Of a stretch of 64,000 bases of DNA, positions 25,926 through 27,500 are shown piece by piece. The first letter of the stretch is position 1. Every line of letters starts with the position of its first letter. The DNA is from an uncultured bacterium. Lineage in GTDB: Bacteria; Chlamydiota; Chlamydiia; Chlamydiales; Rhabdochlamydiaceae. The stretch lies in contig CAYWSY010000001.1 of NCBI GenBank assembly GCA_964461105.1, positions 8,714 to 72,713 on the forward strand. The letters are read 5' to 3'. The notes beneath the pieces were generated by a model. It had not been told where the DNA came from. It was given only the letters and a program-made list of their open reading frames with translations, and ran no database searches. The translations under genes were made by a program, and so were the position numbers.

Positions 25926-27344
25926 ATGCAGACGCGCACAAAAATTATCTGTACGATCGGTCCAGCGGTAAACTCGTATGAGAAGATTCTCGAGCTCATC
26001 CATGCGGGGATGAATGTCGCGCGCTTGAATTTCAGCCATGGAACCCATGCAGAGCATCTTAAGGTCATCGACATGCTCAAAAAGGCAAGAGCTGAACAAA
26101 AGGTTCCTCTTGCCATTATGCTCGACACAAAAGGACCTGAGATCCGCATCGGAAAGATTGCCCAAGACAAAATGGCGCTTGTTGCAGGACAGAAACTGTT
26201 GCTTGTTAAAGAAGAGGTTGAGGGAGATTTTCAGCGGCTCAATGTGCATCCAGCAATTGTGTTTGATCATCTTGAGGTGGGTGTCAAAATTCTCTTCGAT
26301 GATGGAAACATTACGTCGCGAGTGATTGAGATCCTTCCTCATGGAGCTCTAGTTGAAATTGAGAACTCGGGGATTCTCAAATCACGCAAAGGGGTCAACA
26401 TTCCTGGTGTTGATATTGAGCTTCCTGCAATGACCTCGCAAGATGTGGAAGATCTGGTTTTTGGCTGCGCACAGGACGTCGATTTGATTGCAGCTTCATT
26501 CATCCGTTCTGCCGATCATGTGCGAGAGATCAAGCAACTTCTTGCTGAGCAGGGCAATCCGGAGATCTTGGTCATTGCGAAAATTGAAAATAGCCAGGGC
26601 GTGCGCAATTTTGAGAGTATTCTTCAAGCGGCAGATGGAATTATGGTTGCTCGGGGAGATTTAGGTGTTGAGCTTCCTTTGAAGCAAGTGCCCAGTCTCC
26701 AGAAGATGATGATTCGTAAATGCTACCAAGCCTCAAAACCTGTGATCACCGCAACTCAGATGCTCGAATCAATGATTCAAAATCCCCGGCCAACACGCGC
26801 TGAGGTCTCTGATGTTGCCAATGCGATCTATGATAGCACCTCTGCAGTGATGCTTTCGGGAGAGACTGCAGTGGGTCTCTATCCGATCGAAGCGGTTAAA
26901 ATGATGAAGAGCATCGCCATGGAAGCGGAAAAGGACTTTGATTATCGTACGTTTTTTCAGCATCTATCGGAGATCGATCTTAACGATATCTCAACTTCAG
27001 TAGCGCTTGCCTCAGTGCGAACGGCATATTGCTCTCACGCATGTGCGATTTTTGTGTTTACAAGTAGTGGATTAACAACACGGCATGTCTCACGGTTTCG
27101 CCCTCAAATGCCGATCATAGCACTCACTTCGAATCACAAGCTTTATCATCAAATGGCATTGAGTTGGGGCGTTCTTTCGATGGAACCCTACGCAGCAAAA
27201 AATATCCAAGAGGCTTTTGCTCGTACAGTGGAATTGGCGCAACAACATGAGCTAGTTCACAAAGGGGATTTAGTGATTGTGACAGCGGGATCTCCTTTCG
27301 GGATCAGTGGAACTACGAATATGATGCTCGTCGAGAGACTATAG
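25926..27344 (+). CDS. pyk: Pyruvate kinase
   Basis: 472 aa. TKIICTIGPA, MLDTKGPEIR, MVARGDLGVE motifs. Confidence 0.95.
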   Translation: MQTRTKIICTIGPAVNSYEKILELIHAGMNVARLNFSHGTHAEHLKVIDMLKKARAEQKVPLAIMLDTKGPEIRIGKIAQDKMALVAGQKLLLVKEEVEGDFQRLNVHPAIVFDHLEVGVKILFDDGNITSRVIEILPHGALVEIENSGILKSRKGVNIPGVDIELPAMTSQDVEDLVFGCAQDVDLIAASFIRSADHVREIKQLLAEQGNPEILVIAKIENSQGVRNFESILQAADGIMVARGDLGVELPLKQVPSLQKMMIRKCYQASKPVITATQMLESMIQNPRPTRAEVSDVANAIYDSTSAVMLSGETAVGLYPIEAVKMMKSIAMEAEKDFDYRTFFQHLSEIDLNDISTSVALASVRTAYCSHACAIFVFTSSGLTTRHVSRFRPQMPIIALTSNHKLYHQMALSWGVLSMEPYAAKNIQEAFARTVELAQQHELVHKGDLVIVTAGSPFGISGTTNMMLVERL

Positions 27345-27500
27345 TGGTTCCAGTTCAAAGAGTCCTTAAATTAAAATCAAAAAAAATAACAGGATAATAG
27401 AAAAAGCATGGGTAATTTTCCTTATCCTGCCATCCTATTATCCTGTTATTTTTTCTTTATTCAACTTTGCAGGTATTCTGAGTGCCTTTGAATGTCTATA
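27340..27500. repeat. PE-B copy 1: 161-bp imperfect palindromic element
   Basis: Reverse complement of the copy at 33875-34054, apart from a 12-nt deletion in one inner arm and a degenerate pyk-side terminus. Overlaps the stop codons of both convergent neighbours. Confidence 0.9.

Follow-up and report, generated by a model that had tools for sequence, protein, structure and literature searches.

Palindromic element PE-B of an uncultured Rhabdochlamydiaceae bacterium: a probable IS630-type miniature transposable element with a putatively captured hairpin

We analysed a 64,000-nucleotide stretch of DNA (the window) from the genome of an uncultured bacterium of the Rhabdochlamydiaceae, in which a preliminary description had singled out two segments as copies of a palindromic element, PE-B. 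We conclude that PE-B is very probably a non-autonomous miniature inverted-repeat transposable element (MITE) of the IS630/Tc1-mariner type. Its ends match those of a resident IS630-family insertion sequence (IS); it is flanked by a duplicated TA, although no exact pre-insertion site was found; it occurs as many small, non-coding copies; and it is present in this genome and absent from relatives at an orthologous site. The architecture is typical of an IS630-type MITE. What is noteworthy about PE-B is its interior, a hairpin of a kind that elsewhere brackets a gene of the GxxExxY family, and its ends, which reassort. Contigs of the assembly are cited below as C21 and so on, and related genomes as G001 and so on.

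A dispersed family of palindromic elements

The two window copies lie in opposite orientations. Copy 2 is full length (33875-34054, plus strand) and measures 180 nt including a TA on each side, the element proper occupying 33877-34052, whereas copy 1 (27340-27500, minus strand) measures 161 nt. A repeat search of the window paired 27397-27492 with 33889-33984 over 96 nt at 100% complementarity, and 27348-27400 with 33994-34046 over a further 53 nt at 89%. In copy 2, the left terminal inverted repeat (TIR), TACCCCTTCCGGTTCAAAGGCACTC (33877-33901, plus strand), is preceded by the TA at 33875-33876, and the right one, TATCCCTTCCGGTTCAAAGGCGC as read on the minus strand (34030-34052), is followed by the TA at 34053-34054; the outer inverted repeat as a whole pairs 33875-33906 with 34023-34054 (32 nt, 84%). 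Enclosed within it is a strandless inner module (33927-34013) that consists of an A-run, an arm (33927-33958), a 23-nt loop, a second arm (33982-34013) and a T-run. The two arms, each 32 nt long and with three AGGAT units apiece, are 97% complementary. The whole element is predicted to fold as a single long hairpin, both as RNA (-91.1 kcal/mol, z = -14.6) and as DNA (-55.1 kcal/mol, z = -12.8). The initial view of the two segments as inverted copies with a hairpin structure is borne out by the identical 96-nt core and by the recovery of both the inner stem and the outer repeats. Both copies also contain a promoter-like sequence, TTGAAT-16-GATAAT (33917-33944, plus strand; 27464-27437, minus strand), which points into the hairpin and is a consensus match only.

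The 25-nt terminus of PE-B had three matches in the window at up to three mismatches, against none in 100 shuffled sequences. We searched the whole genome (a 2.01-Mb assembly in 154 contigs, 43.9% G+C) and found 126 occurrences of a 19-nt terminus core at up to three mismatches, where by our own arithmetic about 0.4 would be expected by chance, together with 37 occurrences of the inner-stem arm. BLAST with copy 2 returned 17 assembled copies at 88-100% identity. Fourteen of these were intact (173-181 nt) and three were variants, namely copy 1, a copy on C26 with a foreign left end and a 5'-truncated copy on C116. A further 10 fragments stood at contig ends, and assembled copies and fragments together were spread over more than 20 contigs; the true copy number is about 22-27. 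Lengths ranged from 161 to 181 nt, with no coding capacity in any copy and a mean pairwise identity of 95.1%; copy 2 was 96-98% identical to other genomic copies.

The census agrees with the preliminary description in treating PE-B as a dispersed family, and it refutes the idea that the two window copies represent a local duplication and nothing more, a reading that is almost certainly wrong. The observation that speaks for such a duplication is a GCACTCA variant of the terminus, which copies 1 and 2 have in common and which otherwise occurs only at two neighbouring solo ends. These four termini (24990, copy 1, 29887 and copy 2) are the only ones of their kind in the genome and all lie within 9 kb (24990-33904), a clustering that suggests local transposition. 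Local hopping is a familiar habit of cut-and-paste transposons.

PE-B belongs to a wider set of elements with the same end. The common end, TA-TACCCCTTCCGGTTCAAAGGCACCCTAA, part of a terminal repeat of about 25 nt (TA-TACCCCTTCCGGTTCAAAGGCAC...), bounds dissimilar interiors in elements of 46-77 nt (n = 5), 96-98 nt (n = 8) and 169-170 nt (n = 3), as well as in PE-B. Pairing of inward-facing ends yielded 32 paired elements in discrete size classes and left 77 family-1 termini unpaired; for 50 of these, a contig end is no more than 120 nt away. We also found a second, sister family of 161-nt elements with a related end, TA-TACTG(C/T)GTCCACTT(C/G)AAAG (in full, TATACTG(C/T)GTCCACTT(C/G)AAAGTTAGAG). 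It is represented by 76 end matches and 15 assembled pairs (for example C23:4296-4456, C27:5891-6051 and C48:14101-14260), and its members often abut PE-B-type elements through a common TA. Of the 308 contig ends, 87 (28% of contig breaks) stop in one or the other of these two MITE families, which are a main reason for the fragmentation of the assembly. All 33 assembled elements were intergenic or overlapped the ends of open reading frames (ORFs) by no more than 30 nt; by rough ORF calls, coding sequence makes up 89% of the genome.

Target site and a candidate parent

The preliminary description had raised target-site duplication as something that an alignment of many copies might reveal. A TA was found immediately outside TAC/TAG at 125-129 of 138 ends, with TA also favoured, though less strongly, one step beyond, and past the TA nothing recurred except at copy 2. 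Elements that abut one another were especially informative: all seven junctions had the same 29-nt spacing, ...GGGGTA-TA-TACCCC... (GTA-TA-TAC), with exactly one TA in common; this holds for the C21 IS too, where it meets the PE-B copy on either side. C48 has a pair of family-2 elements separated by a 170-nt element in the form TA[element]TA, and on C29 and C90 two family-2 elements abut directly through a single TA, the unfilled counterpart of the C48 junction. Judged from the sequences, this geometry is what insertion into TA with duplication of the TA would predict. Members of the IS630 family have been shown by experiment to insert into TA with a 2-bp duplication, and about 24-30 bp of each end is enough for their transposition (PMC2170065). 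A longer target duplication was considered and rejected, since copy 2 alone has an imperfect repeat of 8-9 nt and the other copies have nothing past the TA.

Presence and absence could be compared at one orthologous site. The cdaA-cydA spacer, which holds copy 2 in the window, has no PE-B in G001 and G002, two genomes of the same genus; the window reads ...GACAATGAGAAAATTTGCCTTT[PE-B]TTGCTCTTTGACAAATTTTAAAAA... where G002 reads ...GACAATGGCAAAATGAGTCTTTTCAATTTTAAAAAA... This comparison was read by eye, as the gap placement returned by MAFFT was wrong.

A candidate parent is present in the same genome. C21:61-1202 is a 1,142-bp insertion sequence with one 346-amino-acid ORF that encodes an intact DDE transposase. 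The protein scored 221 bits against the NCBIfam model NF033545, "IS630 family transposase" (cut-off 100), and also matched the Pfam families DDE_3, HTH_33 and HTH_29. Aligned with Rhabdochlamydiaceae homologues, it is full length and retains the D, D and E columns, with 35 residues from the second D to the E, counted by eye. The IS is the sole IS630-family element of the assembly, present as a single copy, and is inserted TA-to-TA between two PE-B copies of the same orientation (PE-B, IS, PE-B; C21:1-1382).

We next set the MITE ends TAGTGCTTCTGGTTCAAAGGCACCC and TACCCCTTCCGGTTCAAAGGCACCC against the ends of the IS, TA-TAGTGCTTCTGGTTGAAAGCCACCC and TA-TAGTACTTCCAGTTGAAAGCCACCC (in longer readings, TA-TAGTGCTTCTGGTTGAAAGCCACCCAA and TA-TAGTACTTCCAGTTGAAAGCCACCCAA). 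The recurrent MITE haplotype TAGTGCTTCTGGTTCAAAGGCACCC was identical to the IS end over its first 14 nt, with 2 differences in the 11 nt that follow. Among the MITE ends, some came within 0-1 mismatch of the IS end: that at C3:46108 is of the IS type throughout, and the right end (C65:10668) of the PE-B copy at C65:10514-10692 has one mismatch. The 55-nt element at C75:2050-2102 has a further 17 nt past the repeat (CCAAGCAGCCTTTCAAC) in common with the right end of the IS, and this match beyond the repeat reflects descent and not mere resemblance. Homologues of the transposase are patchily distributed in the family, with 65% identity in G043 and 58%, in many copies, in G119. The ends of related IS in other genera do not match the PE-B end motif, so the end sequence is specific to the lineage of the C21 IS.

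The distribution of the MITEs is similarly restricted. Among 129 genomes of the family, the terminus at up to two mismatches occurred 110 times in this genome and not at all in G001 or G002. A variant terminus, CGTTCCGTTTCAAAGGCAC, was found in a few genomes of another genus, and the elements there are homologous to the 96-nt and 169-nt classes. No PE-B turned up in other genomes of the family, in metagenome contigs or in genome contigs, and a plasmid collection had no match to PE-B-specific words. The exact 19-nt terminus had nine single matches in 185,579 species genomes, all in unrelated phyla; with about four expected by chance on our own arithmetic, these do not show spread beyond the family.

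Several observations weigh against PE-B as a MITE mobilised by the resident IS. The commonest MITE end and the IS ends disagree in their outer part, at positions 3-6 and 10-12, and at two core positions (GGTTCAAAGGCAC versus GGTTGAAAGCCAC), so it may be that the resident IS does not mobilise PE-B. In G001 and G002, the empty site has no TA at the insertion point, and copy 2 has on its two sides an imperfect 8-9-nt direct repeat, TTGCCTTT / TTGCTCTTT (33867-33874 and 34055-34063), which duplication of a TA alone does not predict. We saw no transposition event, no excision footprint and no polymorphism between strains; the only other assembly found was of the same strain. Finally, the interior of PE-B is 97.9% identical between copies whereas end positions 3-14 are only 79-84% identical pairwise; with ends more variable than the interior, simple copying followed by decay is insufficient as an account. 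As side observations, the relatives carry a single such flank word at the copy 2 site. One Logan contig (run SRR12808457) has the same truncated pyk and breaks inside copy 1; it stems from the same strain and is hence uninformative. In the search for encoding contigs, cdaA and cydA were not found.

Some of these observations could also be accommodated if PE-B were a fossil MITE, with IS630-type ends but belonging to an immobile family whose true parent has been lost, the resident IS not being its mobiliser. The single copy of the IS would fit such a history, as would the two core positions that separate its repeat from the commonest MITE end and the solo or damaged state of several termini in the window. 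In genomes of genus g3, moreover, the homologues of the 96-nt and 169-nt MITEs are orphans, with no close transposase. However, the uniformity of the interior and the absence of PE-B from relatives of the same genus indicate recent amplification, the ends at C3:46108 and C65:10668 are nearly or wholly those of the IS, and the IS, itself intact, has a PE-B copy joined to it TA-to-TA on each side. We regard a fossil family as unlikely.

Under the preferred interpretation, PE-B as an IS630-type MITE, the variability of the ends has a structure of its own. The end haplotypes are discrete (CCCCTTCC, CTCCTTCC, GTGCTTCT, GTACTTC(C/T) and CTTATTCC), and the same haplotypes recur in elements of other size classes and at either end of the PE-B interior. 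In the copy at C26:22473, a family-2 end is fused to a PE-B interior. The haplotypes common to size classes and the C26 fusion together indicate that ends and interiors have been reassorted, which could have come about by template switching during gap repair or by recombination within the common inner repeat.

The inner hairpin and the GxxExxY gene

The inner stem of PE-B has an older history, separate from that of the ends. Positions of about 45-141 match at 70-83% in G006, G017 and G023, which belong to other genera, and in G001 and G002. All five genomes lack the terminus yet carry TIR-less hairpins, with a conserved stem, AACAGGATA(T/A)TAGGATGG(T/A)CAGGATA, variable loops and A-run/T-run flanks. 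A hairpin of this AGGAT type lies at the same site in two species (L013, G002:C22:108055-108136; L016, G001:C2:107413-107503), so such hairpins can be stable residents. This genome has about seven TIR-less hairpins, one of which, C6:28574-28679, is 87% identical to PE-B over positions 37-140, a match that extends 16 nt past the T-run. On the strength of the hairpins in genera without the terminus and of the C6 match, PE-B is, as far as sequence comparison can tell, a chimera in which the ends of an older MITE surround a resident palindrome, amplified in this lineage only.

The same palindrome is associated with a gene. At C40:7531-8055, hairpin arms (7531-7574 and 7994-8055) that are about 90% identical to the inner arms of PE-B bracket a gene for a 145-amino-acid protein, which scored 133 bits against TIGR04256, GxxExxY (cut-off 35), and matched PF13366, PDDEXK_3, with E = 2.3e-38. 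Homologues in G011, G032, G034, G036, G039 and G040 are likewise bracketed by inverted repeats of 21-171 nt, although of different sequences; in G011 the arms lie at L121:1473-1498 and 1989-2014. A distant GxxExxY paralogue on C25 has no bracketing repeats. Papers that name the GxxExxY family give no function for it.

We propose that the N-terminal helix-turn-helix domains of the IS630 transposase would bind the conserved inner part of the repeat (TTC at 7-9; GTT(C/G)AAAG(G/C)CAC at 13-25), and that its DDE domain would excise PE-B and paste it into a TA, which would be duplicated; insertion would often occur beside an existing element or a few kilobases away. The hairpin interior would be passive cargo. 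A resident A-run/hairpin/T-run palindrome, of the kind that elsewhere brackets a GxxExxY gene, may have been trapped by two ends of an older MITE, one on each side, and then have been amplified about 20-fold in this lineage only. Copy 1 would be an old insertion, now immobile and associated with the deletion of the C-terminal domain of pyk, and copy 2 would be harmless between two back-to-back promoters.

The hairpin might instead be the point of PE-B. If the element were a functional module, its A-run/hairpin/T-run core would serve as a bidirectional terminator or regulatory signal and its ends would be incidental. The A-tract/stem/T-tract layout is indeed that of a two-way terminator; five of the seven TIR-less versions in this genome lie 1-71 nt downstream of a stop codon, one in G006 lies 3' of a tRNA gene, and one has been conserved in place in G001 and G002. 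PE-B itself behaves differently: among the 16 copies with both neighbours known, seven have divergent neighbours, a setting in which a terminator would serve no purpose, and only five have convergent ones. A simple terminator scan found none at either window copy, because the loop measures 23 nt and the 32-nt stem is AT-rich, and the ends are common to elements with very different interiors. No Rfam 15 family reached its gathering score; the only hits, of 31-32 bits, were to two models of plant/animal microRNA precursors whose thresholds are 69 and 96. We judge the functional-module account to be very unlikely. An intrinsic (rho-independent) terminator in the strict sense was rejected, because PE-B has an A-run and a T-run but neither a short G+C-rich stem nor a small loop, and also on gene context.

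Another possibility is that PE-B was moved or homogenised through the inner hairpin, by the GxxExxY PD-(D/E)XK nuclease or by a Y1 transposase as in REP/RAYT systems, and not by an IS630 enzyme. The arms around the C40 gene and the inverted repeats that flank its homologues in six other chlamydial genomes lend this some appeal, as does an interior far more uniform than the ends: copies 1 and 2 are identical over 96 nt, whereas the ends of copy 1 have 8 mismatches in 39 nt. Nevertheless, the boundaries of the element are set by IS630-type ends and TA rather than by the hairpin, TIR-less hairpins number only about seven in the genome against about 22 inside PE-B, the Y1 genes on C3 and C41 are parts of IS200/IS605-type units that have none of these hairpins in their vicinity, and the GxxExxY family is without a known function. 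We hold this explanation to be very unlikely indeed.

REP/REPIN elements with their RAYT gene do resemble the TIR-less inner hairpin in being dispersed, intergenic, mostly downstream of genes and tied to one small enzyme gene. PE-B differs from them in its IS-type ends and TA, and in that the associated gene encodes a GxxExxY PD-(D/E)XK nuclease and not a Y1 HUH transposase. We rejected a REP/REPIN-RAYT system on the IS630-type ends and TA and on the Y1_Tnp genes (C3:48041-48364 and C41:292-656), which have no hairpins nearby. The two units to which these genes belong (C3:48041-48364 and C41:292-1000) are of IS200/IS605 type; one Y1 transposase gene is intact at a contig end, and the other, on C41, has stop codons and is followed by a TnpB-like ORF.

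A two-enzyme scheme would combine the IS630 and the nuclease accounts. The IS630 transposase would act on PE-B through its ends, and the C40 GxxExxY nuclease would recognise the hairpin, so that repair of the break would copy the interior from one PE-B to another. We consider this rather improbable. If true, it would explain how 97.9% identical interiors coexist with swapped ends of about 80% identity and how copy 1 keeps a pristine 96-nt core within decayed ends, and it would provide a testable substrate for the large GxxExxY family, which is uncharacterised.

Window insertions, neighbouring genes and related systems

Copy 1 departs from the intact form in several ways. A three-way alignment placed a 13-nt deletion between ATAG direct repeats in one inner arm, where a loss of 12 nt had originally been reported, and showed that the terminus on the side of the convergent ORF lacks 6 nt (TATAGAC------ATTCAAAGGCAC; without the flanking TA, TAGAC------ATTCAAAGGCAC, 27482-27498, minus strand). 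The same alignment gave the 8 mismatches in the 39 nt of its ends, around a core identical to that of copy 2. Its pyk-side terminus, TAGTGGTTCCAGTTCAAAGAGTC (27342-27364, plus strand), had been described as merely degenerate. Extra substitutions are present, but the terminus belongs to a second haplotype (TATAGTG...) that recurs genome-wide and is also that of the IS itself.

Four further termini lie in the window. One, at 29887-29916 (plus strand), is a solo terminus without a partner, has three mismatches to the 30-nt consensus and carries the GCACTCA variant. A diverged solo terminus, TATACTGTGTCCGGTTCAAGAGCACTCA (24990-25019, plus strand), has an opposite-end remnant, CTGGAAGGGGTAT, about 30 nt upstream. 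The others are half a terminus, TATACCCCTTCCGGTTCAAA (50562-50581, plus strand), and a solo terminus, TATCCTCGTCCCGGTTCAATGGCACCCTAA (2454-2483, minus strand).

As had been noted at the outset, copy 1 lies between convergent genes and copy 2 between divergent ones, and these are pyk and an ORF in the first case and cdaA and cydA in the second. Copy 2 separates cdaA (33005-33805, minus strand) from cydA (about 34125-35519, plus strand). A sigma-70-like promoter match for cydA, TTGACA-16-TAGAGT (34062-34089, plus strand), lies 8 nt outside the element, and a promoter-like match for cdaA (33857-33829, minus strand) points in the divergent direction; both are consensus matches only. Copy 2 lies between the two and interrupts neither.

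Copy 1 reaches into both of its neighbours. The pyk stop codon, TAG at 27342-27344, lies inside one terminus, and the protein ends ...TTNMMLVERL*; the stop codon of the convergent ORF (27496-27825, minus strand), at 27496-27498, lies inside the other, and that protein ends ...FLGQHL*. Pyruvate kinase is 579-605 amino acids long in 65 of 80 relatives and 585 in the two closest, whereas the product of pyk here (25926-27344, plus strand) has 472, with PK and PK_C domains intact. Homologues of pyk place the organism in the Rhabdochlamydiaceae, the best matches coming from two metagenome-assembled genomes (MAGs) at 79% and 78% identity. The missing part is a C-terminal domain of about 113 amino acids (some 110 codons) that resembles the PEP-utiliser mobile domain, an assignment that comes from PRK06354 residues 478-584 (E = 9e-10) and is below the cut-off of that model. 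Copy 1 takes up the position at which the relatives encode this domain. Homology to the relatives resumes directly outside copy 1, and no other part of the genome encodes the missing domain. Because PK and PK_C are intact and short forms occur naturally in 15 of the 80 relatives, the 472-amino-acid enzyme is probably functional. Copy 1 may have caused the deletion of about 330 nt from pyk or may have arrived afterwards; recombination between two insertions is one possible route.

PE-B has close parallels among IS630-derived MITEs (for example in the ISY100/IS630 context; PMC2170065, PMC2229807), which are likewise short, non-coding, multi-copy and intergenic, with TA flanks, a hairpin formed by the whole element and terminal inverted repeats of about 25 nt that resemble those of a co-resident IS630-family element. 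It differs from them in having a captured resident palindrome for its interior, by all appearances, rather than a deletion derivative of the IS, in the several discrete haplotypes that the outer 12 nt of its ends adopt across size classes, and in its host, an uncultured member of the Rhabdochlamydiaceae. RUP of Streptococcus pneumoniae and Nezha of cyanobacteria are further examples of IS630-derived MITEs. The Correia elements (CREE/nemis) of Neisseria are also similar by description, with lengths of 100-160 nt, terminal inverted repeats, a TA duplication, positions near genes and hairpins in transcripts. Correia ends begin TATAGTGG, as does the pyk-side end of copy 1. Unlike PE-B, for which there is a candidate IS630 parent, they occur in an unrelated host and have no known parent transposase.

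We found no paper that describes MITEs in Rhabdochlamydiaceae, and the main genomic study of the family treats the expansion of transposases, not non-coding derivatives (PMC9723776). PE-B and its relatives would extend the known mobile DNA of environmental chlamydiae to IS630-type MITEs, and the two MITE families matter for the assembly and comparison of such MAGs. MITEs have also visibly altered genes, in that the C-terminal domain of pyk is gone at a PE-B copy. The chimeric make-up of PE-B would illustrate the capture and amplification of another repeat by a transposon, and its roughly 20 near-identical GxxExxY-type hairpins may offer a natural set of substrates for an uncharacterised family of nucleases.

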